Part shown: piece by piece, positions 24,013 to 42,042 of the stretch
Layout: each line of letters starts with the position of its first letter
Numbering within the stretch: the first letter of the stretch is position 1
DNA from: an uncultured Candidatus Saccharibacteria bacterium
GTDB taxonomy: Bacteria; Patescibacteriota; Saccharimonadia; Saccharimonadales; JALRHH01
Assembly (NCBI GenBank): GCA_964639295.1
Contig: CAZXDT010000001.1
Location: 181,068 to 245,067, forward strand
Direction of reading: 5' to 3'
Length of the DNA stretch: 64,000 bases
Notes under the pieces: generated by a model
What the model saw: only the letters and a program-made list of their open reading frames with translations
Database searches by the model: none
Told to the model about the DNA's origin: nothing
Program-made: the position numbers and the translations under genes

Positions 24013-24034
24013 TAAAATTAACTTCTACTCATTT

Positions 24035-24056
24035 AAAAAACCGCCTTTCGGCGGTT
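24035..24056 (-). terminator. Intrinsic terminator after hpf
   Basis: AACCGCC-tttc-GGCGGTT, followed on the minus strand by TTTTTT. Confidence 0.75.
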
Positions 24057-24062
24057 CTACTG

Positions 24063-24425: not shown

Positions 24426-24531
24426 ATACATTCCCTTCTGTTACTGTTTGAAAGTACGAGAGAGTCATTTATTAACTCGTACTTACAGTATACGCCTAGT
24501 TTTCTGTGACAACTGTGAAATCAATCACAGA

Positions 24532-25776: not shown

Positions 25777-25817
25777 GCAGATAGTATACCGTAATCCGTT
25801 ACTAAACTGGACTTTAC

Positions 25818-25846
25818 TAGACAGTTTTCGCTTAGAGGCTTATTAT
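25818..25846 (+). promoter_or_regulatory. Putative promoter of the Nudix gene
   Basis: TAGACA-N17-TATTAT, then 9 nt to ATG 25856. Confidence 0.4.
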
Positions 25847-25855
25847 TTGGCCATT

Positions 25856-26566
25856 ATGAGTCACGAGGTAAAGCTTCACACCGTTCAAACCAGCATCTTG
25901 CGGGCACTCCTCTTTGAGCCGACTGCAACGTATACAAACTTGCAACAATTAACTGATCTCAGTAGCGACCATTTTAACTTCCACATTACACGGCTCGTAG
26001 AGCTTAATTTGATAGAAAAAGTACAGCGTGGAACATATCGGTTAACTACAGCCGGCAAAGAATACGCAAACCGGCTGGACACTGACAATAACACCGTAGA
26101 ACGACAGCCAAAGTCAGCTGTCATATTTGGTCTGAGTCGTGAAAAAGATGGAAAAATCGAGTATTTATTCCAGGAACGACGTAAGAATCCTTACTTTGGA
26201 TTCTGGGGTCTTCCGAGTGGAAAGATCCGCTGGGGCGAAACAATTACTGAAACTGCACGCCGTGAATCCCTGGAAGAAACTGGCCTAGACGCCGATTTTG
26301 AGATCGCTAGTGTTTATCACGAAGCAGTTAAAGATTCTAAAACCGGTGGAATCATCGAAGACAAGATATTCTTCATTGTCAGGGGTACAAATGCTCGAGG
26401 AACACTTATTGAAGACTTTGAGGGCGGCCATAACAAATGGCGAACGGTTGAATCCGTTTTATCCGAATCTAAAAAATACGCCACACTTAAATCTGAAATT
26501 GACTTCCTGACAACTGACAAATGGTTCAATGAACAGACAGTCACCTACTCCGATCAGGAGTTCTAA
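25856..26566 (+). CDS. Winged-helix (MarR/ArsR-like) domain fused to a Nudix hydrolase
   Basis: Start at MSHEVKL. N-terminal HTH-like region (ILRALLFEP...NLIEKVQRGTYRLT). Nudix box GKIRWGETITETARRESLEETGL. Confidence 0.75.
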   Translation: MSHEVKLHTVQTSILRALLFEPTATYTNLQQLTDLSSDHFNFHITRLVELNLIEKVQRGTYRLTTAGKEYANRLDTDNNTVERQPKSAVIFGLSREKDGKIEYLFQERRKNPYFGFWGLPSGKIRWGETITETARRESLEETGLDADFEIASVYHEAVKDSKTGGIIEDKIFFIVRGTNARGTLIEDFEGGHNKWRTVESVLSESKKYATLKSEIDFLTTDKWFNEQTVTYSDQEF

Positions 26567-26964
26567 TGAGCAGGCCAAAGGTAGTGATTTGCGGCAGTTT
26601 CCGTAAAGATCCTGCTGGATTGGCACGACTGTTTCGTGAGTTAGAAACAAACGGCTGCCGTGTATTATCACCACTCACACTCGATTTTACGGATACCGAA
26701 TCCGAATTTGTAACTGCAAACCATGATGAGTCATTTTCGACTAGAGAGCTCGAGAGGTTTCACTTACGCGCAATACGCGAAGCTGATTTTGTAATACTCC
26801 ACGCACCCGAAGGCTACGTCGGAACGAGTACTAGTTTTGAACTAGGCTATTCAACAGCACTCAATATCCCTATTTTTAGTAAGACCAAAGTCACTGACCA
26901 GATGCTACGAACACAAATCAAAACAAATGGATCGGTTTTTGAAATTCTCGATTCTATTTCTTAG
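26566..26964 (+). CDS. SLOG / nucleoside 2-deoxyribosyltransferase-superfamily protein (DNPH1/Rcl- or LOG-like nucleotide N-glycosidase)
   Basis: 132 aa. VVICGSFRKD (compare DNPH1 YFCGSIRGG phosphate loop) and EADFVILHAPEGYVGTSTSFELGYSTALNIPIF (compare ADVVVAEV...GVGYELG...PIL). TAATG overlap with the Nudix gene. Confidence 0.55.
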   Translation: MSRPKVVICGSFRKDPAGLARLFRELETNGCRVLSPLTLDFTDTESEFVTANHDESFSTRELERFHLRAIREADFVILHAPEGYVGTSTSFELGYSTALNIPIFSKTKVTDQMLRTQIKTNGSVFEILDSIS

Positions 26965-27754
26965 CTTTTGCCTGTAAGGCTTTGACTGTTAGCTCTGTAC
27001 GCGCGCGGGCGTAGGTACAGTGTTCACAGGGGCCGCCCATGGCTGCGGTGCCGATTGGCGGCATTTCGTCAGATTCCATACAGGCTTTCATATCCTCAAT
27101 TGTCTTACCAACCCAGTCACTATTGCCGTGATGTGGAAACACAAAGGTTTCAAAGTCTACTCTATTAAAGAAACCTTCCCTATCCTGTGTGCCGGTAGCA
27201 TACACAAAGTAACCCGTGTCGCTTACCTTGAAGCCATTTTGCTTGAGTAACCATTGGTAGACTTCCATTTGGCGTCGGTACATATCCTGCCAGGTACCTT
27301 CGGGTCCGAGTTCAGTGACAGGTTTTGCCTTGGCAGTCGCTTTATAGTCAACAACCATTAATTCACCATCATCATTAACCCAAATGTCATCCACAGCACC
27401 AAAAATATGCAGATTCGTTGGTTCGTGGATAGTGGTAATTCCGGTGAAGTTGTAGCGCCACGTATCAAGATCTTTGTGCTGATATGGGATAGCTTTGATC
27501 TGATTGTCGGTCATCAAAGGATGTGGCTGTTGTTTAGCACGATAGACATCAAATTCCTTTTTAAAAAGTTCGTCGATAGTCTTATTGATGTTAAATGGCG
27601 GGCTTGATGGGCGCGTAATTTTAAGCCGTACATCCAGCCAAAAACAGCGTGGACACTGCATAAACAACTCGATTTTTGATCGAGACAACTTAAAAGGTGT
27701 CTTCTGCCCTGGTTGATATGGGAGCGATCGCTCCCTGAAGTAGTTCCCTGCCAT
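26954..27754 (-). CDS. PD-(D/E)XK nuclease, Cas4/RecB-like with Cys cluster
   Basis: 266 aa. N-terminal QCPRCFW, GAVDD...VVDYK (D..D/ExK), QMEVYQWLL (QxxxY), C-terminal C...CEHC. Confidence 0.65.
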   Translation of the reverse strand: MAGNYFRERSLPYQPGQKTPFKLSRSKIELFMQCPRCFWLDVRLKITRPSSPPFNINKTIDELFKKEFDVYRAKQQPHPLMTDNQIKAIPYQHKDLDTWRYNFTGITTIHEPTNLHIFGAVDDIWVNDDGELMVVDYKATAKAKPVTELGPEGTWQDMYRRQMEVYQWLLKQNGFKVSDTGYFVYATGTQDREGFFNRVDFETFVFPHHGNSDWVGKTIEDMKACMESDEMPPIGTAAMGGPCEHCTYARARTELTVKALQAKAKK

Positions 27755-27847
27755 ACGTTGCTCTATTGTACTATGAGCCGAGCGAAATGATTGCTAGTAA
27801 TCATTTCCGAGCGAAGACGTACATCAGTAACTTGTTACTATGTAGCA

Positions 27848-29959
27848 CTAGTGAGCGTGCGCTAGGCCGTGTCTTCGGAAAGCTTTGTATACTTGGTGCT
27901 TACCGTGATGCCTAGCAATCAAAACTACTGCTAGCCCAATCCCGCCAATTCCTGCTCCTACGCCAAGTAATAATAGTAGTATCGACGGGTCTTTGACGTC
28001 TTTACCTTCACTAATGGCCTGCTCAGATAGTTCTATATACTGATCCGCAAGTCGATGCGACGGGAATAATTCTTTAACTTTCTCGAACTGTGTTTGGGCT
28101 GCAGAATAGTGGTGCTTACTGTACAGATCAAGTCCTTTTTGCCAGGCAGCTTGTGTTGGGCTTGAAGGATTTGGAGTTATATCTTTGTTTTTCATGAGGT
28201 CTTTGAAATCTTTGATATCACGGATGTAGCTCTTAGCAGCGTCAGTGGACTCACCACTGGAGAATCGGTATGTTAATAGCCCAAATACCTGCCCATCTTC
28301 GTTAATTGCCGGCCCACCGCTATTACCCGCGGAGGCATCTGCATCAGATTGGTATAGCTTTGAAGCCGTACCCGCTGTATCGCGAATCGAGCTGATCGCA
28401 CCATTTGTGACAGTCACACTCAGCTTACTATTATCTGTTAATGCGTTGTCTGCATCCCCTGGGAACCCAAACAAACTAATCTTTTCATTCTGGGTGACCG
28501 GTCCATCGGCCAACTGCACAACGGGTAGATTTTTGGCCTCAATTTTGAGCAAAGCCACGTCACTGGCGCTAAAGCCTTTCTTTGGGTCACTCACAACCGT
28601 CAGCTGATCTTTAGGTGAGTAGTTATATCCGACGATCCGTGCAGATTTGAGGCTCTCAGTATCCCTGAAGGCGCCGACCATTCGTCGAGCATCCTGTTCA
28701 TCCTTAAGCTCTAGCGGGGTTGAGCCGAGTGCAACTACTGTAAGGTCATGTTGATCTTGCAGTCTTAACTCGGCATCTGAGAGGTCATAAATCTTGGACA
28801 CTACCGATGCTGTCAGATCCGGACGACCCATAACTTCTTGAACCTGTGTGTCGGTTAGTTTAGTCCCTTTTAGGAATGCTGCTAACAATGTTGGGTTTTT
28901 CAGCAATGCACTCGACAACATGTCTTTTGCGCCGTAAACAACGACGTGCCCATTAGTGCCAATATAGCCATCCTGCGACACGATAAAGCCACTACCCGAC
29001 AAGCCCTCACAAGTGTCAGTAGCTACAACACTACCCTTATAGACCAACGTGCCACAAACGATGTGATAGACCTTAATGACTGCCGGGGATACAAGATCTG
29101 CGACATACTTTTGATCGAGTATCGGTGCTTTGTCTTCGCCAAACAGCGTAGAAAGACCTTCTACTTTGGCATCAGAAGAGATTTTGAGCGTTTGGAAAAT
29201 TGGTGCCATAGACGACGGAATTTCTGCACCAACCACAATACCCCTTACCGTAACAGATAGCGGTTTACCATTTACCTGTGCTGTCCAAACAATGGTATGT
29301 GTTGGATTACCGGCAAACTTAGGACTAATTTTGTATACGGATTTGACCATCGCCGTGCCGTTGAGAGTGTCTGCGGTTCGGCTTTCCAGAGCAATATCAG
29401 CAATCGTAGTTGGCTTGGGGGCGAAGTAGTTAGCCGTGACTGTTGGCATATCCTGCCCCGTGGGTGCCTTTGTCTTAAAGGTAGCAAATGCGCCAGCGTC
29501 CGTTTCGCTCGCAAGTTCAAGCTCTGCTGCAGCTTCAGGGGCTGGTACCCGGCTTGGCAGTGGGCTCAAAACTACACTCGTAAGCGCCTTACCTGACTTT
29601 AAGTCCGAATCACTAATACCCCCAGTCGCGCCATCACCCCTGGCTTGCACACTGAATTGCTCATTATTAAAGCCGAATGCAAACCCGCTGCTCGAACGGA
29701 CCAATGTCGTTCTACGTACTGCCGGATCAGTCACTGCTTGGTTAAACAGCGTTCGGGGATCAAGTGATTGCCGCGTTATAACTGCGCCCAGCTCCAGGGC
29801 CATAGTTCCAACAAACGCTAATGTTAGTATCAAGAATAACAGATGTCGCTTGCGGAACGCCTTGGTGTGATGTGGCAAAATATGCAAAGCATCCGCCAAA
29901 GCGATTAACGCCGGAGGATGCTGCAATGTTTGTTTTGTGTGCGCAGTCGTAGCTGCCAT
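27848..29959 (-). CDS. Membrane-anchored trypsin-like (S1C-type) serine protease with TM helices at both ends
   Basis: 703 aa. TNGHVV (His), DVALLKI (Asp), GNSGGPAI (Ser). TM LLFLILTLAFVGTMALELGAVI near the N-terminus and ILLLLLGVGAGIGGIGLAVVLIA near the C-terminus. AAGGTGAGGG RBS. Confidence 0.75.
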   Translation of the reverse strand: MAATTAHTKQTLQHPPALIALADALHILPHHTKAFRKRHLLFLILTLAFVGTMALELGAVITRQSLDPRTLFNQAVTDPAVRRTTLVRSSSGFAFGFNNEQFSVQARGDGATGGISDSDLKSGKALTSVVLSPLPSRVPAPEAAAELELASETDAGAFATFKTKAPTGQDMPTVTANYFAPKPTTIADIALESRTADTLNGTAMVKSVYKISPKFAGNPTHTIVWTAQVNGKPLSVTVRGIVVGAEIPSSMAPIFQTLKISSDAKVEGLSTLFGEDKAPILDQKYVADLVSPAVIKVYHIVCGTLVYKGSVVATDTCEGLSGSGFIVSQDGYIGTNGHVVVYGAKDMLSSALLKNPTLLAAFLKGTKLTDTQVQEVMGRPDLTASVVSKIYDLSDAELRLQDQHDLTVVALGSTPLELKDEQDARRMVGAFRDTESLKSARIVGYNYSPKDQLTVVSDPKKGFSASDVALLKIEAKNLPVVQLADGPVTQNEKISLFGFPGDADNALTDNSKLSVTVTNGAISSIRDTAGTASKLYQSDADASAGNSGGPAINEDGQVFGLLTYRFSSGESTDAAKSYIRDIKDFKDLMKNKDITPNPSSPTQAAWQKGLDLYSKHHYSAAQTQFEKVKELFPSHRLADQYIELSEQAISEGKDVKDPSILLLLLGVGAGIGGIGLAVVLIARHHGKHQVYKAFRRHGLAHAH

Positions 29960-30038
29960 ACCCTCACCTTAGGTTACTTAACCATAAGTATAACCCTGTT
30001 AGCTCTTCATAACAAACGCAAGCTGATAGCTACTTATA

Positions 30039-30269
30039 CTATTGTCGTTGGGGCACAAATTCGGTAATAAGTGCAAGATGCGCTTCGTCGTCTTTGAGCT
30101 CTGTGATGCGGTACAAGCGCTCGGTCCCCACTCCATCAAATAGTAAAACTTCTTGACCGGCCTGGAACCCGAGAACCTGGTTCCATTGTTCTAAAATTTC
30201 TTGGTCATGTAACCAGAAATCGTGTTTCAATTCTAGTTTTGTGCCGACGTTAAAACGATGTAACTGCAC
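30039..30269 (-). CDS. RsmE N-terminal (PUA-like) domain only; truncated 16S rRNA m3U1498 methyltransferase remnant or stand-alone domain
   Basis: 76 aa, GTG start. MQLHRFNV...QVLGFQAGQEVLLFDGVGTERLYRITEL matches the RsmE N-terminus. The SPOUT domain is absent and only 79 bp remain before the next gene. Confidence 0.5.
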   Translation of the reverse strand: MQLHRFNVGTKLELKHDFWLHDQEILEQWNQVLGFQAGQEVLLFDGVGTERLYRITELKDDEAHLALITEFVPQRQ

Positions 30270-30274
30270 GACAA

Positions 30275-30928
30275 TTATTCTGAACCCTGTAAGTTATACA
30301 GCTGGCCAGATGCAAGGGTCGCACCGACTGTATAGCTACGACACATCACACTTGAGCTGTTACAACCCTCTGGTAGAGGCACATAGTGATACTGCCCCTT
30401 AGTAGGCTTAGCGGCAAAATTAATGTTTGAGCCAAGTGGATCAGTATACGTCTTGCGGCCTATCTTAATGAAACTCGGGTCGGCACGACGGAACTCTTCG
30501 CTGTTAATCTGCGAAATAGAAGGATATATTCCAAATCGGTCGTAATACTCACCAAGACGGTCATTAATCAATTTAATGTCATTTTTCTGCTCTTCTTCAG
30601 GATTGAGTGGTGTAACGAGCGCAGCCGGCCCAGGTACGTTCGCCCGGCTAAGACTTGGCTTTGGCTTATTATGAACAAACGTGCTCACGGAAATAATAAT
30701 AAGTAGCCACACGCCAACCATTGCGGCGATTGTTTTAGGTGTCATGAAATGTGACATTGCTGAGTGGGAATGGCCTATTGGCAGTTCTGGCATACTAATA
30801 GGTGAACTCGGTGCAATTGCCCCAGAACCAGACGAACTCACAGAAGAATCAAACGCAGTGCGTGCGATATTCTGAGTGTCTTGGATGCTCTCTGACTGAT
30901 AGTCAGGAGTATTTTCTTTTAAGTTCAT
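30275..30928 (-). CDS. Membrane-anchored hypothetical protein with pilin-like globular-domain motif
   Basis: 217 aa. TM IAAMVGVWLLIIISVSTFV. NDIKLINDRLGEYYDRFGIYP resembles the D..I...LE.YY...G.YP motif of type IV pilins and pseudopilins. C-terminal Cys pair. No prepilin cleavage motif. Confidence 0.45.
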   Translation of the reverse strand: MNLKENTPDYQSESIQDTQNIARTAFDSSVSSSGSGAIAPSSPISMPELPIGHSHSAMSHFMTPKTIAAMVGVWLLIIISVSTFVHNKPKPSLSRANVPGPAALVTPLNPEEEQKNDIKLINDRLGEYYDRFGIYPSISQINSEEFRRADPSFIKIGRKTYTDPLGSNINFAAKPTKGQYHYVPLPEGCNSSSVMCRSYTVGATLASGQLYNLQGSE

Positions 30929-31018
30929 TTATTTCCTATTAGTTTTTGTTTTTTATTTATATAAAACAGTACGTCTATTTATAGCATAAACGTGTTAAAT
31001 TTGCAAGAGTATTTTGAT

Positions 31019-32281
31019 CTATTTAATTAGCTGTAGCACTGCTAATGACTCAATGTGTGGAGTTCGTGGGAAAAAGTTAAAACCACTAACAGAGGTAATT
31101 TTGTATGAACCCTGCAGTAACGCCAGATCACGAGCCTGTGTTATGGGATTACAACTGAGATATATGATTGCTGGTGGTTTGGCGTCTAGAATGCGCTCAG
31201 TTACTTTGGCGTGCAGACCAGCACGCGGAGGATCAACAATAAGGTATTGCTCGCTATTGATATAGTCCAGCGCTGTTTCAGCAGTCGCCTGCACTACCTC
31301 TGCCTTAGTCCCCTGGCTATTTTGTAGTGCCATTTCACAGTTATGCCTGTCTGATTCGACCAATACTGCCGCACCACCAATGGCAAGTCCGATTGTACCG
31401 ACGCCGCTATACATATCTACATATGCGTTATCACCAACTGCTTGTTTAATTGCAGTTAGCGCTTGAGTGAAGATATCGAGATTTACTTGGAAGAATGAAT
31501 TTACGTCGTATGAAATATCGATATCCTGTATCTTTTCCGTCAGTACAATGTCCCCGTAGGTATAGAGCTCTTTTGTGATAACACTCGCAGGACTTTTTGG
31601 AGTTGAGTAGTAAACTGCTATGCCGCTGCACACTTTGGCAAGCTCTGGGAGTTCTGGAAACGATTCGTCTTTGACAAACAAGGCGGCAACAGTTTCCCCG
31701 GCCTGATTTGCACGTACGACGACTGTTTTGAGCTGAGAACCCCTGATACCGTGCTGGCTGAGCACTGATAAGATTTGGCTAGCTGTCTGGTCAACGGCGG
31801 GCATAGCGATGCTACTTCCTGGCACAATGCGTTTACCATGGGTTCCGCGATTGAATAGTGCAAGATGTAGGCCATTATCATCTGCCCAGAAGCTATATTC
31901 CATTTTGTTGCGGTAGTGCCACTGCTCAGTACCGGCAATCATGGGAATATCAGCGCTATATGCAACATGTTCACGCTGCATTGTTTCGGTTAGAATTGCT
32001 TGTTTATGTGCGTTTTCGGCAGTGAATGACATCATTTGCCAAGGGCTGGTACTTAGATACGCCTCATCGCGTGGCTGTTCGCGGTCTGGGGATGGCTTAA
32101 TAATCTCCGTGGCTATGCCTTCGGCCAACTTATTTTTGTTCTTAGTCAGCTGTATCTTAACCGTTTCACCCGGGAGCACATTCCACACAAAAACACGCCG
32201 GCCATCCGCCAGCCGGCCAATACCTTGGCCACCATGGACCAATTTTTCAATCACGCACTCCTCAACAGCTGGCCTGCTCAC
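31019..32281 (-). CDS. RNA (uracil-5)-methyltransferase, RlmD/TrmA family, with TRAM domain
   Basis: 420 aa, GTG start. TRAM (VIEKLVHGGQGIGRL...GETVKIQL), DMYSGVGTIGLAI, IVDPPRAGL, YLSCNP. Confidence 0.8.
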   Translation of the reverse strand: MSRPAVEECVIEKLVHGGQGIGRLADGRRVFVWNVLPGETVKIQLTKNKNKLAEGIATEIIKPSPDREQPRDEAYLSTSPWQMMSFTAENAHKQAILTETMQREHVAYSADIPMIAGTEQWHYRNKMEYSFWADDNGLHLALFNRGTHGKRIVPGSSIAMPAVDQTASQILSVLSQHGIRGSQLKTVVVRANQAGETVAALFVKDESFPELPELAKVCSGIAVYYSTPKSPASVITKELYTYGDIVLTEKIQDIDISYDVNSFFQVNLDIFTQALTAIKQAVGDNAYVDMYSGVGTIGLAIGGAAVLVESDRHNCEMALQNSQGTKAEVVQATAETALDYINSEQYLIVDPPRAGLHAKVTERILDAKPPAIIYLSCNPITQARDLALLQGSYKITSVSGFNFFPRTPHIESLAVLQLIK

Positions 32282-32443
32282 AAGCGAAGCTTGCGATCCG
32301 CCAGCTTCTTGGCCACTTTGAACAGTGTCCTTTGCGGTACGCGGTTGACGTACTATTGTACGTCTCCCTTGCGTTCCACAGGACTCAGTCCAAACTGTCT
32401 CAAGTGAGTAGCACCTGATTTGAAAAATTGCACGCTTTTATCT

Positions 32444-33400
32444 TTATTTGCTAGCGTAGAGGCCAACAATTAATACTACAGCTACTGTGGTTCGAGCAAG
32501 GAAAGTCAGTACGTTATATGACTTATCGATTGCAATGTAGTCGTGTTTCCCAGAAAGTGGGGTCTTCTTAAGCTTGAGTTGAATAACGCAGAGCCATGCA
32601 ACAAAAGCAGCAGCAGCAGCATATGCGTACCAAGGTGATCGAGCCATACCGTAAATGTATGTACTCCACATAGTAGCGGCAAGTGCGAGAATTGGCACTG
32701 CTGAAGCTACTTGAGCACCGATCAAACTTGCACGTGCTGGTTTGCCTGTAACAGCGTTTTCACGCTCGTACATCCATGCAAAGTATGCGGTTAGCGCAAT
32801 ACTCAACATACCAAGCTTGAGTGCCAGTACATCTTGTACGCCGTTGAGTAATCCAACAAGTTCGAAGAAGAGAGCGCCAGTAACAGCGAAGTCAACCCAA
32901 CGTAGTGGTTGAACACCAGTTTTGACACCAGCTGCTTCACGGTGCTGCCACTTCGTGCCACGAAGTATTGCAAAAAGTGCAGATACACCGAGGAATACTA
33001 CGAGCAGCCAACGAAGCTCAAGCTCGTACAATGGGTGAGCTGCAGATGCCAGCACAGTGGTTGCGCTACTTGCAAGTTCATTCTTAGTCAAATGACCCAT
33101 GAATACTTGGATGCTGTCACTCTTCATGAGTAGTCCTGCAAGAACAGCCTGCAACGCAAGGATAACGCCCGCAATTACATACTGCTGGTTAAAACGACTC
33201 GTGAATGACTTAGTATTACTGATGTTTGTAGCTGCTGCTTTAACAGGAGCCTTCTTAGCTACAGTTTTCTTTGATGCTGCAGGTTTAGTTGTCTTAGCTT
33301 TTACTGATGATTTTGTGGTCTTTGCAGCAGCGGTTTTTGCTGGTGCCTTCTTGTTGGTAGTTTTGGTCTTTGCCTTGGTGGTAGATGTAGATTTAGCCAT
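32444..33400 (-). CDS. Heliorhodopsin-family 7-TM protein lacking the Schiff-base lysine (Arg instead), with Lys/Ala/Thr-rich N-terminal extension
   Basis: 318 aa, seven hydrophobic segments. Recalled heliorhodopsin motifs: FN..IAGV...LQ, FLGVSALF, RWVDF (RWVEY in characterised members), GVQDVLAL, FAWMYE, SYNVLTFLARTTV (TM7, K->R303, CGA 32492..32494). Confidence 0.65.
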   Translation of the reverse strand: MAKSTSTTKAKTKTTNKKAPAKTAAAKTTKSSVKAKTTKPAASKKTVAKKAPVKAAATNISNTKSFTSRFNQQYVIAGVILALQAVLAGLLMKSDSIQVFMGHLTKNELASSATTVLASAAHPLYELELRWLLVVFLGVSALFAILRGTKWQHREAAGVKTGVQPLRWVDFAVTGALFFELVGLLNGVQDVLALKLGMLSIALTAYFAWMYERENAVTGKPARASLIGAQVASAVPILALAATMWSTYIYGMARSPWYAYAAAAAFVAWLCVIQLKLKKTPLSGKHDYIAIDKSYNVLTFLARTTVAVVLIVGLYASK

Positions 33401-33434
33401 GCATTAAATATACCACATCTGTTTGTCAGATGGT

Positions 33435-33914
33435 CTACTCTACATCCTGGTATGGGATGTGACACATGCCGCGACCAGTACGTTCCGTGAATTTTTGGTG
33501 ATATTCCTCTGCAGGATAAAAGGTAGCTGCGGGTGTAATTTGCGTGGCGATTGGCTTATCTAAACCTGTCTGCAGTTCGTCACGGACAGCTTCTGCTATC
33601 TGTTTTTGCTCATCATCTATATAAAATATTGCCGAGCGATATTGGTCACCAACATCTGGACCCTGTCGATTAAGTTGTGTTGGGTCGTGCATTCTAAAGA
33701 ACTGTTTTACGAGTACCTCATAACTCACTTGTTCTGGGTCAAATTCAAGTTCCACGGCCTCGGCATGGCCTGTGCCATGCGAACAAACTGTATCGTAAGT
33801 TGGATTTTCTGTATGACCACCTGTGTACCCAGTAATACTTTCAGTTACGCCGGGTACTTGGTCAAAATAAAACTGTACACCCCAGAAACATCCCGCTGCA
33901 AAAATAGCTTTCAT
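33435..33914 (-). CDS. msrA: Peptide methionine (S)-S-oxide reductase
   Basis: 159 aa. MKAIFAAGCFWGVQFYF with the GCFWG active site. Confidence 0.9.
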   Translation of the reverse strand: MKAIFAAGCFWGVQFYFDQVPGVTESITGYTGGHTENPTYDTVCSHGTGHAEAVELEFDPEQVSYEVLVKQFFRMHDPTQLNRQGPDVGDQYRSAIFYIDDEQKQIAEAVRDELQTGLDKPIATQITPAATFYPAEEYHQKFTERTGRGMCHIPYQDVE

Positions 33915-33937
33915 ATAATGATTATCCCACGATTTAA

Positions 33938-34324
33938 TTAAACGAGTACTGGTTCGCGTTTGGCATCAAGCTCAGGATCAGATTCCGTAACCTTAACATC
34001 ACGCCAAAAGGCTACGTAATCACTGAAGTCCTTTTTGACTTTGTGAATAGCTGATTCGTACGGTTCAGGGTAGCTCCAGGCTACGTCTTCACTCATTGAA
34101 TCGCCCTGTTGGACATTAAAATACTGGCAAACGCCCTTCCATGGGCAGGTGTATGGCGTATCACTTTTAGTCAAAAAATCTTGTTTCACACTGTCTGGCG
34201 GGAAGTACCAATTGCCTTCTATGTAAATAAGATCCTCTTTTGGTGCCTCTGCAATAACTTGATTGTTCCAAATAGCTTTTATGACTGTTGCTCCCTTGCT
34301 GGTTTTAATAATCTGGCGAACCAC
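33938..34324 (-). CDS. DUF427 domain protein
   Basis: 128 aa, GTG start (uncertain; 46-nt overlap with the upstream gene). NWYFPPDSV and CPWKGVCQYFNV match the DUF427 pattern. Confidence 0.65.
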   Translation of the reverse strand: MVRQIIKTSKGATVIKAIWNNQVIAEAPKEDLIYIEGNWYFPPDSVKQDFLTKSDTPYTCPWKGVCQYFNVQQGDSMSEDVAWSYPEPYESAIHKVKKDFSDYVAFWRDVKVTESDPELDAKREPVLV

Positions 34325-34839
34325 ACGAGTTCCTCATAGAGAGCTTGTGCGTTTTTATCGTATCTTTCAGCCAACTCAGGCTTAATTTGCCCGTTTTCAT
34401 CAAATGTATCCTGTATTTTTGGAAAGTACATCTCTGTTTGGATGTTTACCATACCGGTACGGTGGCAAACTGGTAATAATGCCTCGCAAACGCGAACCCC
34501 GCCCCATGACCCACTACTGACACCAACGAGCGCCACTGGTTTATGTTTGTAGTTTGCATATTCGCTATCCAACATACGCTTTAAGCTACTCGGGTAGCCA
34601 TGGTTGTATTCTGGAGTCACAATAATAAATGCATCTGCTTTAGCCGTAATATCACTGTATTTGGGGTCTTTGACATCTTCGCCTTCGTCTAGCAGCATGA
34701 GCTCCTGAGGGTCTACAAAAATTAGCTCAACACCAGGCATCAATTTGGCATGTTCGGCTATATAATGCGCTGCCTTAACTGACTCACGCTTGGCCCGGAT
34801 GGTACCCACAAGAAGAGCTATGGTAATTGGATTATTCAC
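34279..34839 (-). CDS. NADPH-dependent FMN reductase family protein
   Basis: 186 aa, GTG start. ADAFIIVTPEYNHGYPSSLKRMLD is the family signature. Confidence 0.8.
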   Translation of the reverse strand: MNNPITIALLVGTIRAKRESVKAAHYIAEHAKLMPGVELIFVDPQELMLLDEGEDVKDPKYSDITAKADAFIIVTPEYNHGYPSSLKRMLDSEYANYKHKPVALVGVSSGSWGGVRVCEALLPVCHRTGMVNIQTEMYFPKIQDTFDENGQIKPELAERYDKNAQALYEELVWFARLLKPAREQQS

Positions 34840-34898
34840 TTACCTATTTAAGCGTAAAAAGTATACTTTGTCATTTTTTGAGCTTGATACCCATATAT

Positions 34899-35906
34899 TT
34901 AGTTTGAGTAATCAACCTGTTCCGTACTATCCCCTTGCTTAAGTGCTATATACAACAGTGATCGCAGACTATGCATTGAGAAATTATCATTGATCGGGAT
35001 GATATACTCGTCTCCGTCATCCAACTCAACTCGACTACCAATTACAACTATTCGCAAACCAAAAGTAAGTTCGTTTGAACCATCTACATCTGAAAAACCG
35101 TGCAGCACTTCCACCGATACCGGGTAGCCCAATGCACTGCCTGGCTTTGCTATAGCTGGTTCGAGACCATTCAGGGCGTCATCGTCTGACTTGTAACAAT
35201 CCCCCTGAAATCGCATATCATATGGAACTTTGGTGTCAAAAGTAACGAGTGAGTTAACGTAATCCCGGACTATGTCCATTTCTTCCGTATTTATAGTTCG
35301 CACTGGAACCTGTACATTGCGAAGTGACATCACGAAATCAGACTCACTGAGACTGTCAATCTTAGCTTGCATAATACCAGCACATTCATCTGGGAAGGAG
35401 TACTGCATTTTATCAAAATAACTTTGATCTGAGCCAAACGGATACTTAATAAATACCTCGTTTGGCACGGCAAACCCCTCCGATACGCCCCAAAACTTAA
35501 CAAGATCACTCTCTCCTACGCGTACAGGCTCGAATCTAAAGTAGTGACCTATCAAATATTTATACTTCGTTGGGTCTTCTTTTTGCTGTGCTCGTGTGGT
35601 CGTAAAGCCCAGAGACGTAACCTGAGCATCTTGAAGATACACACGACGAGGTTCAGCTGCACTTGGATCGTCCAGATCTATCTTGCCGGGCATAATGACA
35701 TAGCCTGTAATCGTTAGATCCTTACCAATGTAAGGCCACTGAGAATCTAGTTCCTTTAGCAGTTCCCTTTTGGCATCTTCATCAATACCGTCATGAAAAA
35801 TTAGTTCTTGTGCCGCCTGGAGTTGGTCAAACACGGGTTTGAGGGCAGAGTCCTCTAACGCCATATCAAATCCAGAAAAAATGTCTATCCCACTTGCCTC
35901 GCTCAT
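34899..35906 (-). CDS. Hypothetical acidic protein
   Basis: 335-aa ORF. No TM or signal peptide and no recognised family. Confidence 0.5.
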   Translation of the reverse strand: MSEASGIDIFSGFDMALEDSALKPVFDQLQAAQELIFHDGIDEDAKRELLKELDSQWPYIGKDLTITGYVIMPGKIDLDDPSAAEPRRVYLQDAQVTSLGFTTTRAQQKEDPTKYKYLIGHYFRFEPVRVGESDLVKFWGVSEGFAVPNEVFIKYPFGSDQSYFDKMQYSFPDECAGIMQAKIDSLSESDFVMSLRNVQVPVRTINTEEMDIVRDYVNSLVTFDTKVPYDMRFQGDCYKSDDDALNGLEPAIAKPGSALGYPVSVEVLHGFSDVDGSNELTFGLRIVVIGSRVELDDGDEYIIPINDNFSMHSLRSLLYIALKQGDSTEQVDYSN

Positions 35907-35945
35907 AGAGGGATTTTACGCCTGTCTAATTATTTTGGGAATAAA

Positions 35946-37463
35946 CTAGTCAAATTTTACATCAGGGTAGACTGATTTGGTGGTTTCGTCTATTTCGTGG
36001 CGGAGTTGTGGAAATGGCACGCCTTCACGGGCAGTAACACCCTCAAAGATCCAAAATACACGTTCAGAAAAGCCTAGTCCACAGGCTGGTGGCATGCCGT
36101 ACTCCAACATTTCGACAAAGTCGATATCAAGCATCATAGCCTCATCATCACCTGCATCACGCATATTTTGCTGTTCAACAAATCGAGCAAGTTGCTCCTG
36201 TGGATCATTTAATTCTGAGAAACCATTACTCATTTCACTACCAGCAATCACTGCCTGGAAGCGCTGTGTTGTCTCGGGATTGTCAGGATTTGTCTTGGCT
36301 AGTGGGCTGATAAATAGTGGCGTATTAATGAGCCATACTGGACCAGCCACGTTCTTACGGATGTTTTTCCAGAGCTTATCTATACCGCGAGCTTTGTTTT
36401 CAGTCTTCTCTACTTCTAGTTTGTTGTCTTTGAGCGCTTTTTTGACATCATCCAGTGAGCAGTTATAGATATCTATATCGTAATGCTTCTTGATAACTTC
36501 TGCGTAATCCCACTGTTCCCACGGTTTACTGAGGTCTATATCAAAGTCGCCCAGTTTGAACTGCAGTTTGCCGAATGCAGCCTCAATCACGTATTTAAAT
36601 AAGTCTTCCTGGAACTGCATACCTTGGCGCCAGTCGGCGTATGCCCAATACCATTCCATTGCGATGTGCTCTGGTAAGTGCTCGTCACTGTAGTTTTCGT
36701 TACGGAAACGAGGGCCAATATCATAGACCTTTTCAAAACCAGCTCCGAGCAGACGCTTGAGTGGCAATTCATGACTAATACGTAGATAGAAATCCTGATC
36801 GAGAGCGTCCATGTGTGTTACGAATGGGTTAGCATCTGCACCACCAGTTGTATGCTCTAGAACGGGCACATTCACCTCTGTAAAGCCACGCTCATTTAAG
36901 AAGTCGCGTGTAGCCTGCCAGAACTTGCTACGACGCACAAAACGTTCGCGAACATCCTGGTTAACGCTCATATCCACGTAGCGGCGGCGCATACGTTCTT
37001 CTTTGTTCGTAAAGCCTTCTATGTCCGTAGGCATACCTCGGAGCGACTTAGTAAGCATTCGTAGTTTAGTAGCATAAATAGACTTTTCACCAGTCTTTGT
37101 GGATTGCACAAGGCCACTTGCCTCAATAAAGTCACCAGGATCAAGCAAGTTTAGTTCGCCATATGCCAATTCGCTATTTGCACGGTCTGGATCTGGGAAA
37201 TCTTCGCGCTGTAGGAATAACTGAATCTCTGCGCTCGCATCACGTACCACTACAAAGGCAATTTTACCGAATTTTCGGATAGACTTAATACGACCGACGA
37301 TTGATGCAGTAGCCTTTTCTCCCTCAAGTTTTTCAAAGTTGTCGACGAGGTCTTTGATTGTAGTTGTTTGGCTGACATTTGCCGGATATGGATTAACGCC
37401 AAGTTTTTTTAGCTCTTCCAATTTACGTAGGCGTTCGTCACGCAATTCTTTAAGTGTTGCCAC
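35946..37463 (-). CDS. lysS: Lysyl-tRNA synthetase, class II
   Basis: 505 aa. OB anticodon domain and class II motifs (FTEVNVPVLE, GPRFRNE, GLGFSERV). Confidence 0.95.
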   Translation of the reverse strand: MATLKELRDERLRKLEELKKLGVNPYPANVSQTTTIKDLVDNFEKLEGEKATASIVGRIKSIRKFGKIAFVVVRDASAEIQLFLQREDFPDPDRANSELAYGELNLLDPGDFIEASGLVQSTKTGEKSIYATKLRMLTKSLRGMPTDIEGFTNKEERMRRRYVDMSVNQDVRERFVRRSKFWQATRDFLNERGFTEVNVPVLEHTTGGADANPFVTHMDALDQDFYLRISHELPLKRLLGAGFEKVYDIGPRFRNENYSDEHLPEHIAMEWYWAYADWRQGMQFQEDLFKYVIEAAFGKLQFKLGDFDIDLSKPWEQWDYAEVIKKHYDIDIYNCSLDDVKKALKDNKLEVEKTENKARGIDKLWKNIRKNVAGPVWLINTPLFISPLAKTNPDNPETTQRFQAVIAGSEMSNGFSELNDPQEQLARFVEQQNMRDAGDDEAMMLDIDFVEMLEYGMPPACGLGFSERVFWIFEGVTAREGVPFPQLRHEIDETTKSVYPDVKFD

Positions 37464-37473
37464 AGTATTCCTT

Positions 37474-37506
37474 ATATAAAAATCTGGGGTTAGTATACCC
37501 CAGATT
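37474..37506 (-). terminator. Intrinsic terminator after greA
   Basis: AATCTGGGGT-tagtat-ACCCCAGATT, followed on the minus strand by TTTTTATAT. Confidence 0.7.
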
Positions 37507-37528
37507 CATTGTTCTTAACAGGTTACGC

Positions 37529-37987
37529 TTATGAAATTTCAGTAATCTTGTACTTAGTTGTCTCTGCTGGAGTAACTATTTCTACTTCTTCACCGAGCTT
37601 CTTGCCTAGCAATGCTTGTCCAATTGGTGATTCGTCAGAGATCTTACCATTAAGCGGGTCAGCTTCTACTGTACCGACTACTTGGAATTCTTTAGACTTT
37701 CCTGCGTTCTTCAACATGACAGTTGAGCCAAGCTGAACCTTACTGTCACCCTTTGGCTTCTTGATGACTGCAACGTTCTGCAAAATGTGCTCTACTTCTG
37801 AAATACGAGCTTCAAGCTTCTCTTGTTCCTGACGGGCAGTCTGGTATTCTGCATTTTCTGCAAGGTCACCAAATTCACGAGCAGTCTTAATCTTCTCAGC
37901 GACTGGACCACGCTCAGCAATGAGCTGTTCCAGCTCCTTAGTCAATTCATCCACACCAGTCTGTGTCAGACTAAATTTCTTGTTCAT
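37529..37987 (-). CDS. greA: Transcription elongation factor GreA
   Basis: 152 aa. AREFGDLAENAEYQTARQEQ coiled coil and C-terminal GreA/B domain. Confidence 0.9.
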   Translation of the reverse strand: MNKKFSLTQTGVDELTKELEQLIAERGPVAEKIKTAREFGDLAENAEYQTARQEQEKLEARISEVEHILQNVAVIKKPKGDSKVQLGSTVMLKNAGKSKEFQVVGTVEADPLNGKISDESPIGQALLGKKLGEEVEIVTPAETTKYKITEIS

Positions 37988-38060
37988 ACTACTCTCCTTA
38001 CCTTCTCTTCTTTATAGAGAAGTGTTTGTATCTCTCAGGATTAGTTTAATTGTATCAGAT

Positions 38061-39311
38061 TTACTTTTTAACGAGTACCTTTATGAGTTCTTCTGTATCC
38101 AGCATTTCGGTATCAGTTCCTATACGCTTCTTGAACTCATGCTTACCCGCTTCTATCGTTTTGGCACTTACCACCACACGATACGGTATTCCCATGAGGT
38201 CGGCATCGGCAAACTTTGTTCCCGGACGCTCATCACGGTCATCATATAGTACCGTAACACCAGCTTCAGTCAAGCTTTTGTATAAATCATCGGCTGCTGA
38301 TATCACATCTGGTGTATTTCCAAGTGATGCGAGGTAAACTTTGAATGGCGAGATGTTTTCTGGCCACACGATGCCCTTGTCATCTGCAAACTTCTCAACG
38401 ATAACACCCATTACTCTCGTGATGCCAATACCGTAAGATGCGAGGTAGATGGGCTTCTGCTCGCCGGATTCATCGGTGTAGAAGATCCCCATTTTCTCTG
38501 ACTTTTCGGTTCCGAATTTAAAGATGTTGCCAACCTCTGCACTTTTTACTGAGGTAAGCGTACTCTTATCTACACCAATCTCTGCGGTTGCGTCGTCAAG
38601 TACTTCTTCGTTCACGGCTACGGATTTATCTTCGTTAACGTACAGAACGTCTTCACCAGCATCACAAATAGTCTGGAATTCATGGCTAAATTTGGTGAAA
38701 GCGCCTCCACTTGCGAAAGTTACAAATGTACTGTCACCAATACCAAATCGTTCGAAACAACGCTTGTAGGCTTCAATAACCTTGTCGTAATACAAATCAC
38801 AGTCTTCCTCACTAGCATGTAGCGAGTACATGTCTTTCATGACAAATTCACGTCCACGCATGATGCCACTCTTAGCCCGCAACTCGTTACGTAACTTGGT
38901 TTGGAACTGATAAACGCTCTGGGGCAAATCTTTGTAACTGTTAACGTACTGTTGCATCATTTCCATGATGGCTTCTTCATGACTCCAGGCTAAACCAAGT
39001 TCAGTACCATCCTGCAGTGCGGTCTTGAACCACACATCAACAGCTTCATCACTCCAACGTCCTGTGCCTTCCCAAGTCTCTTGCCGCTGCAAGTTGGTCA
39101 TAATCAACTCTTGGCCCGCAACTGCGTTCATTTCCTCTCGAACAATCTGTTTAATATTCTCTACAACACGGAGCCCAAGAGGTGTATAAGCATAGACGCC
39201 GGCCATTACCTTGTATACAAAGCCAGCCTGAATCAATAACTGCGCGTTCTTAGCTGTTTCGTCAGCTGGTGCTTCTTTGCGTGTTTTAGTAAATAACTGT
39301 GATGTCCTCAT
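38061..39311 (-). CDS. proS: Prolyl-tRNA synthetase, bacterial-like but lacking the INS editing domain
   Basis: 416 aa. MRTSQLFTKTRKEAPADE..., RNELRAKSGIMRGREFVMKD, anticodon-binding C-terminus. Only about 40 aa separate motifs 2 and 3. Confidence 0.85.
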   Translation of the reverse strand: MRTSQLFTKTRKEAPADETAKNAQLLIQAGFVYKVMAGVYAYTPLGLRVVENIKQIVREEMNAVAGQELIMTNLQRQETWEGTGRWSDEAVDVWFKTALQDGTELGLAWSHEEAIMEMMQQYVNSYKDLPQSVYQFQTKLRNELRAKSGIMRGREFVMKDMYSLHASEEDCDLYYDKVIEAYKRCFERFGIGDSTFVTFASGGAFTKFSHEFQTICDAGEDVLYVNEDKSVAVNEEVLDDATAEIGVDKSTLTSVKSAEVGNIFKFGTEKSEKMGIFYTDESGEQKPIYLASYGIGITRVMGVIVEKFADDKGIVWPENISPFKVYLASLGNTPDVISAADDLYKSLTEAGVTVLYDDRDERPGTKFADADLMGIPYRVVVSAKTIEAGKHEFKKRIGTDTEMLDTEELIKVLVKK

Positions 39312-39341
39312 ATGACCCCTATTCTACCCCATAAGGCTAGC

Positions 39342-40190
39342 TTACGTCACTTTGAAAATAAAAAGTGCCAAGAATGCTAGACCATTCTTTATAAAATGCA
39401 GTCCGATCCCCGGCCAAAGGCTGCCCGTTTTCTGACGAAGCCATACAAGTATCATCGAAAGTGTGAAGGTGTCGGCTGCCGCAGTCCACAGCAATGCGTT
39501 ACCACTGCCCCACTGTAAATGTGCTGATGCAAAGATAATACTCGTGATTACCGCAGCAACGATTTTAGGCAGCTTAGTCCTAAGTCCGGTATACAAAAAC
39601 CCACGAACTACAAGCTCCTCAACGAGTGGTGGCAAGATAACGAGACTTAAGAATACAAATAGCAACTCAGGGCCGGCCGTGCCCGTACTAAAGCCAAGTT
39701 CCTGTTTCTGATTAACATCCACTTGCGGAAAGTATTGTTTGATAATGTTAAAAATTAGTAAGGCATACACCCCGAAGTACATTGCAAACCCCGCCAGCGC
39801 ATAGCCGATATCCCTCAATTGTGGCTTAACAACACCGATTGCTGATAGTAGTGTTTTACGTCGCTTTACAAATACATATATCAGCCAAGTTGTAAGTGCC
39901 TCAATAGATAAGATCATGGCAAACTGCCAGCCCGGTGAATGCTCAAGGATATCGTTCAGCTGATCATTAGAAAGCCCGCGAGCACCACCAATCACACTAG
40001 CGATAACCCCAATGACTATTTGTGTCGTAAAGTATACAGCCACAGTAACGCCTACTGCCTCAAGTGGGCTCCAATTCACATCCGCTTCGTCTGACTTCCG
40101 CCTCACAAAAAACCTAATCACACCGTAAAAGGCCAAGGCACCAAGGAGCATTGTGACTACGTTTGACGAGGAAACCACCAAGCCAAACAT
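39342..40190 (-). CDS. CPBP family intramembrane glutamic endopeptidase
   Basis: 282 aa. EELVVRGFLY (EExxxR) and FASAHL (FxxxH). TAATG overlap with rseP. Confidence 0.8.
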   Translation of the reverse strand: MFGLVVSSSNVVTMLLGALAFYGVIRFFVRRKSDEADVNWSPLEAVGVTVAVYFTTQIVIGVIASVIGGARGLSNDQLNDILEHSPGWQFAMILSIEALTTWLIYVFVKRRKTLLSAIGVVKPQLRDIGYALAGFAMYFGVYALLIFNIIKQYFPQVDVNQKQELGFSTGTAGPELLFVFLSLVILPPLVEELVVRGFLYTGLRTKLPKIVAAVITSIIFASAHLQWGSGNALLWTAAADTFTLSMILVWLRQKTGSLWPGIGLHFIKNGLAFLALFIFKVT

Positions 40191-41317: not shown

Positions 41318-41341
41318 CTAATTAAGTATAACTTCTTTCCT

Positions 41342-42040
41342 CTACTTACCAAATCTACGTTTGCGATTTGAGTATTCGCTGAGAGCTTTGTCCAGTTCTG
41401 CTTCATTGAAGTCGGGCCAATATAGGTCGCTGAAATATAATTCTGCATAATCGCTTCGGTACAGCATGAAGCCACTTGTTCTGTGTTCGCCGGAGGTGCG
41501 AATAACCAAGTCTACACCTGGAACTTCTGGGTAATACAGAGCCTCATGGACTGTGTCACGAGTTATATCTTGTGGCTTAATACCGCTATCAACAATGGCT
41601 TTTACCGCGTCAACAAGTTCTTCTTGTCCACCATAGTTAAAGCAAAGTGCCAAGGTACCACGTGTGTTATCACGGGTCTTCTGTTCGGCTTTTTCAATCG
41701 CCTTGAGCACTGGAGCGGTTAAATGATCACGCCTACCAAGTACTACTATTTTAATCCCGGCTTTATCAAATGTGTTGAGATGTCTTTCAACTGCCTTTAC
41801 GAGCAGTTTCATGAGGTATCCAACTTCTTCTTCGGTCCGTTGCCAGTTCTCGGTAGAAAACGCGAATGCACTTATATATTCGATACCTTTATCAAATGCT
41901 GCAAGTACGGTGGTTTTAAAAGTCTCTGCCCCTTGCCGATGACCCTCTAGTGTAGGCAGACTCTTTTCCTTTGCCCAGCGCCGATTCCCATCAAGAATAA
42001 TACCCAGATGCTTTGGAAGAACCATTTTTAATTCTGCCAT
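41342..42040 (-). CDS. uppS: Isoprenyl transferase (undecaprenyl-diphosphate synthase)
   Basis: 232 aa. HLGIILDGNRRWA, FAFSTENWQR, IRTSGEHRTSGFMLY. Confidence 0.9.
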   Translation of the reverse strand: MAELKMVLPKHLGIILDGNRRWAKEKSLPTLEGHRQGAETFKTTVLAAFDKGIEYISAFAFSTENWQRTEEEVGYLMKLLVKAVERHLNTFDKAGIKIVVLGRRDHLTAPVLKAIEKAEQKTRDNTRGTLALCFNYGGQEELVDAVKAIVDSGIKPQDITRDTVHEALYYPEVPGVDLVIRTSGEHRTSGFMLYRSDYAELYFSDLYWPDFNEAELDKALSEYSNRKRRFGK

Positions 42041-42042
42041 TT

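Follow-up and report, generated by a model that had tools for sequence, protein, structure and literature searches.

A 64,000-nucleotide stretch of contig CAZXDT010000001.1, from an uncultured Candidatus Saccharibacteria bacterium, carries on its minus strand a gene of the heliorhodopsin (HeR) family in which an arginine stands where the retinal Schiff-base lysine is expected. We refer to the whole stretch of DNA that was analysed as the window. The gene lies between msrA and a gene for a TRAM-domain uracil-5-methyltransferase, and it encodes a protein identical to P0001 in public assemblies. Database annotation lists lysine-less HeR homologues of this kind as hypothetical proteins. The coordinates of the gene, of the residues discussed below and of the two neighbouring genes are collected in Table 1.

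The heliorhodopsin gene and its Schiff-base column

The original prediction, made from the sequence by a model, had assigned the protein to the heliorhodopsins from seven hydrophobic segments and a series of family motifs. All of these motifs were found in the protein (FN..IAGV...LQ, FLGVSALF, RWVDF, GVQDVLAL, FAWMYE, VP and SYNVLTFLAR), and the assignment held in both profile and structure searches. The Pfam profile PF18761 (Heliorhodopsin) matched the 318-residue protein with an E-value of 1.9e-17 and 63.9 bits, relative to a gathering cut-off of 26.7. The match is nearly end to end, spanning residues 74-311 of the protein and positions 5-238 of the 242 in the profile. The same profile is present in all 79 relatives recovered in a first database search, one fragment excepted. 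A phmmer search of all Protein Data Bank (PDB) chain sequences identified TaHeR (6is6/7clj, E ~1e-10) and 48C12 (6su3/6uh3, E ~4e-5; 3.6e-5 for 6su3), and no significant matches other than heliorhodopsins.

An AlphaFold2 model built from a 36-sequence alignment has seven transmembrane (TM) helices (residues 72-91, 129-148, 165-185, 191-218, 223-250, 257-282 and 285-313) and the long beta-hairpin in the AB loop that is typical of HeRs (residues 96-128). The predicted local distance difference test score (pLDDT) is mostly above 90 in the seven-helix (7TM) domain. The ten best Foldseek matches of the model in the PDB were all HeR entries, with a TM-score by target of 0.75-0.84 and E-values from 1.4e-11 to 1.7e-8. 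Superposition on TaHeR 6is6 gave a TM-score of 0.84 and a root-mean-square deviation of 2.7 A over 250 columns, and the 48C12 structures scored 0.77-0.81 by target; the best type-1 rhodopsin in the list had an E-value of 7.8e-3 and a TM-score of 0.62. A positive-inside count on the model helices placed 30 Lys and Arg residues inside (11 without the N-terminal tail) and 6 outside, which predicts an N-in topology. With these results, we conclude that the protein is by descent a heliorhodopsin. Under a functional definition, as a retinal protein with SxxxK in TM7, its sequence would place it outside the group.

The central claim of the original prediction was that Arg303 occupies the column of the retinal lysine, which is Lys241 in 48C12. 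All alignments and a check of the codon agree with this placement, and CGA is two substitutions away from AAA or AAG. Arg303 stands opposite the retinal lysine in the phmmer pairwise alignments to both crystal sequences, and it falls in the same column in MAFFT alignments that include the 48C12 reference. In a family-only alignment, this column contains Lys in 71 of the 79 relatives. Lys-type sisters with 63-70% identity align without a gap through TM7 and have Lys exactly at position 303 (YNVLTFLARTTVAVVLIVGLY in the Arg-bearing protein vs YNVESVLVKVALAVILIIGLY in Lys-type relatives). The TM7 motif here is T299-F-L-A-R303, in place of SxxxK.

The prediction had also stated that TM7 contains no other lysine, which needs a small correction: K285 and K293 are found at the cytoplasmic end of model helix 7. 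K293 aligns with Arg231 of 48C12, in a column where Lys types, too, have K/R or a different polar residue (N, T), so it does not substitute for the Schiff-base lysine. We considered whether a misalignment hides a Lys one turn away and rejected this, given a TM7 that is gapless relative to the 63-70% sisters and a K293 that corresponds to the cytoplasmic K/R of many Lys types. No stable retinylidene Schiff base is made by a guanidinium group, so that retinal would not be held covalently by the Arg303 protein, in line with the prediction, which had allowed for either a light-independent role or a non-covalent chromophore.

Asp170 aligns with Glu107 of 48C12, the counterion of the Schiff base, and Leu81, Ala144, Glu155 and Gln164 fill the columns of His23, His80, Tyr92 and Asn101 of 48C12. 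An Asp counterion and the replacement of two His residues by Leu and Ala had been listed as peculiarities of this protein. All of these residues are present as described, but they are subfamily-wide features, Lys-bearing members included. Asp is the majority counterion residue in Lys-bearing relatives too, and the equivalents of His23, His80, Tyr92 and Asn101 are also missing from Lys-bearing members of the Saccharibacteria subfamily. A crystal structure of TaHeR E108D is available in the PDB (7clj). Judged from these alignments, the Asp counterion and the lost His residues are marks of the subfamily, separate from the event in which the lysine was lost.

The seven-helix domain is preceded by a cytoplasmic tail with 18 Lys and no acidic residues, which is rich in K, A, T and S and predicted to be disordered. 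The tail opens with MAxxTxxTKAKTKTT, and nearly every subfamily member begins with the conserved motif MA(T/K)xT..TKAKTKTT. The motif together with a K/T/A/S-rich tail of 60-70 residues is found in L007-L032 and in most of P0001-P0278. The ratio of nonsynonymous to synonymous substitution rates (dN/dS) of the tail in Arg-type pairs is 0.18-0.44, and because of these values we consider the tail to be coding and constrained. It is missing from crystallised HeRs and from some shorter members (~255-263 aa), and no comparable segment is found in the other open reading frames (ORFs) of the window. We found no description of lysine-rich HeR tails in the open-access literature. The gene is thus a member of a HeR subfamily that is specific to Saccharibacteria and has a polycationic tail of ~70 residues. 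The tail resembles those of histone H1 or HupB.

Table 1. Positions of the heliorhodopsin gene, its residues of interest and the adjoining genes in the window
Feature	Position	Strand	Basis or remark
HeR-family gene with Arg at the Schiff-base position	32444..33400	(-)	complete ORF, 318 aa, ATG start, TAA stop
N-terminal cytoplasmic tail, residues 1-68	33197..33400	(-)	pLDDT <50 for residues 1-67; composition
Seven-helix HeR domain, residues 72-313	32462..33187	(-)	AlphaFold2 model
Arg167-Trp168, RW of TM3 (Arg104-Trp105 of 48C12)	32897..32902	(-)	conservation by class
Codon 170 GAC, Asp, counterion column (Glu107 of 48C12)	32891..32893	(-)	alignments
Codon 178, Phe	32867..32869	(-)	site of 48C12 Met115 (bacteriorhodopsin Leu93, next to the chromophore); Met/Ala in Lys sisters
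Glu212 (Glu149 of 48C12)	32765..32767	(-)	cytoplasmic polar cluster
Codon 274, Gln, TM6 (48C12 position 210)	32579..32581	(-)	Val/Ala/Leu in Lys sisters; new polar residue in the former chromophore region
Asp292, Asp/Glu column (Glu230 of 48C12)	32525..32527	(-)	cytoplasmic polar cluster
TM7 residues 299-306, TFLARTTV	32483..32506	(-)	substitution scan: 6/8 differ from Lys sisters (T299, F300, R303, T304, T305, V306)
Codon 303 CGA, Arg, column of the retinal Schiff-base Lys (Lys241 of 48C12)	32492..32494	(-)	alignments, codon check
msrA, peptide methionine sulfoxide reductase	33435..33914	(-)	Pfam PF01625, E 6.8e-64
TRAM + tRNA/rRNA uracil-5-methyltransferase, downstream	31019..32281	(-)	Pfam PF05958, PF01938

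Loss of the lysine, selection and orthology

A second search was seeded with the distant Arg-bearing homologue P0077. Among 135 full-length relatives, the Schiff-base column contains Lys in 98, Arg in 36 and Ala in one. We constructed a bootstrapped neighbour-joining tree with this column left out. The window gene and its four orthologues form clade A (bootstrap 100), which is nested in a Lys clade of 69 members (bootstrap 89). Clade B consists of 21 sequences, all with Arg (bootstrap 99), all full length and 51-82% identical to P0077. In addition, there are two smaller all-Arg clades (bootstrap 98-100) and three Arg singletons among Lys sequences. Fitch parsimony on this tree and on 60 bootstrap trees gave 6-8 changes at the column, one of which is Lys to Ala.

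Two further surveys gave a similar picture. Scanning one genome per GTDB species yielded 27 loci, each from a different assembly and nearly all labelled Saccharibacteria, Saccharimonadia or Saccharimonadales; in these species representatives the column is K in 20, R in 5 and A in 1, and the Arg codons are CGA, CGT, AGG and, twice, AGA. A profile was also run exhaustively against 1.84 billion cluster representatives, which gave 1,527 family matches; among the best 150 of these the column is K in 109, R in 17 and uncharged in 22 (V, L, Q, T, A, I, Y, N or S). The uncharged sequences make up a charge-free second class of lysine-less HeR homologues (P0160, P0174, P0177, P0184, P0193, P0203, P0204, P0210, P0214, P0218 and others, with one such locus at L026 6001-6840), and they mostly carry G, Y, S, F or T in place of the acidic TM3 counterion. 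Taken together, the column counts and the tree show that loss of the lysine is recurrent and widespread in Saccharibacteria HeRs, which the original prediction had not noticed. We also looked for convergent secondary substitutions common to the Arg clades and rejected them, because the best-separating columns follow a split into two subfamilies and 'RT' is frequent only in clades A and B.

The Arg codon of the window gene is not an isolated variant; with the significant profile match and the alignments of TM7, this means that the prediction withstood all the sequence and structure checks that it had proposed for its own refutation. All four of its nearest relatives, which come from four other assemblies and are 83-85% identical, carry Arg, and the codons in the five clade A sequences are CGA four times and AGA once. 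In the 7TM domain, Arg-type pairs have a dN/dS of 0.045-0.116 at dS 0.8-1.9, and a Lys-type control pair (P0009/P0015) has a dN/dS of 0.058 at dS 1.53; with dS near saturation these ratios are approximate, but the two types of pair were compared on the same footing. The outgroup lies at a mean distance of 0.787 from clade A and of 0.765 from the Lys-type sisters. We therefore rejected an evolutionary burst after the loss of Lys, since these distances indicate no acceleration. Because the dN/dS of clade A matches that of the Lys control and its outgroup distance is in line with that of its sisters, constraint was not relaxed upon loss of the lysine.

In each of the 27 GTDB assemblies, a single gene of the family was detected. 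A tblastn search with the whole family found no second member in the window, and no second family hit was found in the five Arg-type GTDB assemblies or in any 12-kb locus. Since genes of the Lys and Arg forms are found at one and the same syntenic position, they are orthologues, with the Arg form an allele-like replacement of a single-copy gene and not a paralogue.

A proposed light-independent role and its alternatives

The residue in the counterion column of TM3 varies with the residue in TM7. In a set of 148 cluster representatives, an acidic counterion is found in 15/17 sequences of the Arg type, 77/109 of the Lys type and 4/22 of the uncharged type; for Arg vs uncharged types, Fisher's exact test gives p = 1.7e-5 when representatives clustered at 50% identity are treated as independent. 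In 48C12, the Schiff base is hydrogen-bonded directly to Glu107 (Kovalev et al. 2020). Given this direct bond, and given that Arg reaches about as far as Lys, the simplest reading is that Arg303 and Asp170 would form a buried ion pair.

In fifteen columns, all clade A sequences share a substitution that its Lys-type sisters rarely have. Besides those in the TM7 segment, they include Phe178, Gln274, Ile273 and Ile237, and the residue at the site of Phe178, Met115 of 48C12, is the counterpart of Leu93 of bacteriorhodopsin (Kovalev et al. 2020). The clade-specific changes affect 5/21 chromophore-lining positions and 10/206 others (p = 0.007), on an extended list of positions that was fixed once the residue tables had already been seen. 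The enrichment of clade A substitutions in the pocket is suggestive, not conclusive.

Other parts of the protein are kept whatever the residue in TM7. Arg167/Trp168, Glu212 and Asp/Glu292 are conserved to at least 85% in each of the Lys, Arg and uncharged classes, and the same applies to Gly187, Lys195, Gly251, Trp257 and Tyr260. The dimer-interface residue Asp190 (Asp127 of 48C12) is invariant in the family alignments. A structural role has been described for the polar cluster Arg104/Trp105/Glu149/Glu230 of 48C12 (Kovalev et al. 2020). Because these core residues are conserved in all classes, the cytoplasm-facing and partner-facing parts of the protein are maintained without a chromophore.

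Taken together, we consider that the gene probably encodes a functional but light-blind, retinal-free orthologue of Saccharibacteria heliorhodopsin, and we assign this reading a probability of about 0.6. Lysine-less Saccharibacteria HeRs in general probably serve a purpose for which light is not required. We suggest that the guanidinium of Arg303 would reach the site of the protonated Schiff-base nitrogen, and that its buried ion pair with Asp170 would tie TM7 to TM3 and permanently imitate the charge pair of the dark state. When the cation is lost altogether, the unpaired buried acid would be lost as well. The pocket would be refitted locally by F178, Q274, T299, F300 and T304-V306. The least certain steps are that the protein may still dimerise, that it may offer its cytoplasmic face (Arg167/Trp168/Glu212/Asp292) and the +18 tail to a cytoplasmic partner or polyanion, and that it may have a constitutive membrane-scaffold or regulatory role, which perhaps is light-gated in the Lys-type relatives. 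For a lineage without light or host retinal, fixing Arg would cost nothing. Saccharibacteria genomes with type-1 rhodopsins have no blh, and these bacteria are thought to import external retinal (Jaffe et al. 2022); being reported not to make retinal fits a light-independent role.

Several points weigh against a light-blind, retinal-free protein. All of the trees are neighbour-joining, and both the approximate dN/dS values and the independence assumed in the covariation test limit what they can carry. The counterion column is non-acidic in 32/109 Lys types, some of which may be misaligned. When the pocket is restricted to the positions that Kovalev et al. list, 3/17 are changed (p = 0.09). Further, clade A and its Lys-type sisters do not differ at 16/21 pocket-lining positions, and the cavity may persist and bind something. 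The partner for the cytoplasmic face and the tail is only putative, and the source habitat of the Arg-type samples was not found in the literature via run, assembly or metagenome-assembled genome (MAG) identifiers. The adjacency of msrA may be plain conserved gene order of the kind typical of such small genomes.

A broader form of the proposal, which we hold tentatively and below even odds, is that the primary job of HeR in Saccharibacteria is retinal-independent, with light sensing an add-on that is switched off, and perhaps on, by a one-step AAA/AGA change, and with a buried Arg-Asp/Glu pair in the role of the protonated Schiff base and its counterion. Under this proposal, the protein could be a dimeric anchor that shows its face and H1-like tail to nucleic acid, ribosomes or a polyanion, or it could be a regulator of a partner enzyme. 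If true, the natural 'dark-locked' alleles would provide a direct experimental handle on HeR function.

Light might instead still be sensed through a non-covalent chromophore, with retinal or a polyene in the pocket or a carotenoid at an outer site, which we regard as unlikely. Lys-to-Gly/Ala mutants of bacteriorhodopsin and bovine rhodopsin reconstitute with retinylidene-alkylamine Schiff bases, which indicates that the tether is not strictly needed. The 16 unchanged pocket positions and the retention of Trp168 and Pro236 also favour this alternative, and a carotenoid-binding site has been reported in 91% of HeRs (2025 preprint). However, the Arg side chain would fill the space of the Schiff-base linkage and C15 and already provides the positive charge, and Phe178 and Phe300 add bulk beside it. 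Free retinal aldehyde, which lacks a protonated Schiff base, absorbs in the near-UV and not in the visible. Moreover, the uncharged relatives without a counterion look like loss of the photochemical site and not like its modification.

We likewise find it improbable that the fold has been turned into a receptor or transporter for a small ligand or anion, with the buried Arg as the site for, e.g., a carboxylate lipid or a planar anion. At low pH, acetate is bound in the polar cavity by the Schiff base of 48C12, and a role in enzymatic or anion-related processes has been proposed (Kovalev 2020). In addition, a retinal-free proteoopsin structure with decanoate (8cnk) appears in the Foldseek list, and clade A has new polar residues, Gln84, Gln274 and Thr304, around Arg303. 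The acidic counterion, however, is almost always kept with Arg, and an internal ion pair fits this better than a free cation. No transporter-like or enzyme-like neighbour is peculiar to the Arg forms, and the cavity residues His23, His80, Tyr92 and Asn101 are absent throughout the subfamily.

A third alternative casts the Arg form as the regulatory subunit of a heterodimer, with a Lys-bearing rhodopsin from another place in the genome as its partner. This has been speculated, with proteorhodopsin as the partner, for Rh-noK, the lysine-less xanthorhodopsin-like type-1 rhodopsins of marine betaproteobacteria (Yamauchi et al. 2019, as reported in PMC10308929). HeRs are dimeric, and the interface residue Asp190 is invariant; lysine-less type-1 Rh-noK and FArhodopsins always accompany a standard paralogue, and some Saccharibacteria have type-1 rhodopsins. 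We nevertheless judge this quite unlikely, because the Arg form sits in the exact slot of the Lys form, as a replacement and not a duplicate, and the searches of the window, the 12-kb loci and the five Arg-type GTDB assemblies uncovered no second member. Finally, the loss of the defining residue, and uncharged replacements in relatives that could include decaying copies, might suggest a base-call or assembly error or drift to a pseudogene, but we rejected this as hardly credible given the same Arg in five independent assemblies with two codons (CGA and AGA), a full-length intact frame, a 7TM dN/dS equal to that of the Lys-type control and the 21 full-length Arg sequences of clade B.

The proposed light-blind HeR can be compared with its closest known counterparts. 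It shares with the 48C12 and TaHeR proteins the PF18761 match, the 7TM fold with the AB beta-hairpin, the predicted N-in topology, the R-W-x-(D/E) motif of TM3, the Glu149 equivalent, the helix-E Pro, the dimer-interface Asp and the TM7 register (S/A)Y.VL....(+). Unlike them, it has TxxxR for SxxxK, Asp for the Glu counterion and an added tail of ~70 residues, and, like the whole Saccharibacteria subfamily, it is missing the equivalents of His23, His80, Tyr92, Asn101, Trp173, Phe206 and Trp246 of 48C12. With the Lys-bearing Saccharibacteria HeRs, it shares 63-70% identity, the slot, the tail, the Asp counterion and the level of purifying selection, and it differs from them by Arg303 and 14 clade-specific substitutions concentrated in TM7, TM6 and TM3 near the chromophore site. 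Lys-bearing HeRs have been reported in Saccharimonadia by a survey that checked candidates for SxxxK in helix 7, and the motifs given there all contain Lys (Chiriac et al. 2022, PMC9166423).

Lysine-less opsin folds are already known in the type-1 lineage, as paralogues beside a working pump, and what appears to be new here is that members of the HeR type lack the lysine. Fungal opsin-related proteins (ORPs) are without the retinal lysine as well. We know of no Arg/acid pair that stands in place of the Schiff-base/counterion pair in haloarchaeal or fungal ORPs. Haloarchaeal opsin-related proteins without the retinal lysine were described by Becker et al. 2016 (via PMC10308929), and both groups resemble the present case in an opsin fold that selection has kept after loss of the chromophore site, which shows that such a fold can take on light-independent roles; they differ in belonging to the type-1 lineage and to unrelated taxa. 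Rh-noK, as summarised in the same source, has an opsin architecture without the retinal lysine and is presumed not to bind retinal, as here, but belongs to the type-1 family, with the opposite membrane topology.

The flotillin-associated FArhodopsins (PMC10308929; Kovalev et al. 2025 preprint 10.1101/2025.04.29.651185) are similar in combining a retinal-less rhodopsin fold with streamlined genomes, and in a pocket occluded by bulky or polar substitutions; freshwater FArhodopsins have Q, T, L or R for the lysine. In contrast to the protein described here, they are pentameric type-1 proteorhodopsin paralogues that always occur with a flotillin gene and with a standard proteorhodopsin elsewhere in the genome, and marine FArhodopsins keep Lys yet bind no retinal. 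Membership in the Rh-noK or FArhodopsin groups implies a type-1 lineage and a paralogue beside a pump; here, the profile and fold are those of HeR, the locus is a replacement and no second copy was found in the searches described above. We conclude that the resemblance to both groups is functional only.

The function of HeRs is unsettled, and proposals made for single members include regulation of glutamine synthetase, photolyase or ABC transporters, viral proton transport and enzymatic roles. Orthologues that are incapable of forming a Schiff base, tightly conserved, at the same locus and of repeated origin argue for a selectable light-independent function of HeR in minimal, retinal-auxotrophic episymbionts. 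The main interest is that such a function becomes directly testable: the Lys, Arg and uncharged alleles are matched pairs for testing HeR function, and the covariation of Arg/acid vs neutral/neutral is in effect nature's own mutagenesis of the Schiff-base/counterion pair. We found no report of lysine-less HeRs in the open-access literature. Only sequences with a TM7 Lys or SxxxK were retained in the Bulzu 2021, Bulzu 2022, Chiriac 2022 (PMC9166423) and 2026 ancestral-reconstruction datasets, and as a consequence of such filters lysine-less HeRs would have been discarded and HeR diversity is under-counted. The lysine-less class, about a quarter of the subfamily cluster representatives, is removed from these datasets by design.

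Neighbouring genes and intergenic sequence

The order of genes around the HeR gene is conserved in 30 loci, Lys or Arg alike, and reads GreA, lysyl-tRNA synthetase, flavin mononucleotide (FMN) reductase, DUF427, msrA, HeR and TRAM/U5-methyltransferase, followed by further shared genes. This synteny and the 27 related loci from Saccharibacteria MAGs indicate a Saccharibacteria origin of the window. The block from FMN reductase through DUF427, msrA and HeR to the methyltransferase lies within 31019..35906 (-) in the window and is conserved in loci L002-L036. In the window, the end of msrA is 35 nt upstream of the first base of the HeR gene, and msrA is the immediate upstream neighbour in 22/30 loci. 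From the HeR stop to the methyltransferase start, the distance is 0-12 nt in most relatives and 163 nt in the clade of the window gene; the short spacing in the relatives suggests translational coupling. HeRs have been proposed to be linked to the mitigation of oxidative stress (Bulzu et al. 2021; Chiriac et al. 2022, PMC9166423). The redox-repair neighbours FMN reductase and msrA echo this link, which we consider weak evidence because gene order is conserved across the whole region.

Both spacers next to the HeR gene contain inverted repeats. In the 163-nt spacer, an inverted repeat has two perfectly matched 7-bp arms around a 4-nt loop (GACGTAC-AATA-GTACGTC, 32347..32364 (-)), with no T-run after it. 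Directly past the msrA stop is a hairpin, CATCTG-ACAAA-CAGATG (33416..33432 (-)), which is followed by an extended -10-like element, TGGTATATT (33403..33415 (-)), that ends ~8 nt before the HeR ATG. From their sequence and position, the -10-like element and the hairpin could provide a separate, nearly leaderless HeR transcript. A consensus scan identified no full sigma-70-type promoter.

An Rfam search over 1..64000 found no family at the gathering threshold (rRNA, tRNA-related or riboswitch), and no separate ARAGORN search for tRNA was made. Upstream of the FMN reductase gene, a 335-aa ORF (34899..35906 (-)) has no Pfam match at E <= 1e-3. Among the loci, L025 (DATHJH010000012.1) is labelled Candidatus Limnocylindria and contains a Saccharibacteria-type HeR with the polycationic tail and the Saccharibacteria flanking gene order. 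The contig probably stems from Saccharibacteria and was mis-binned into a MAG of Chloroflexota.

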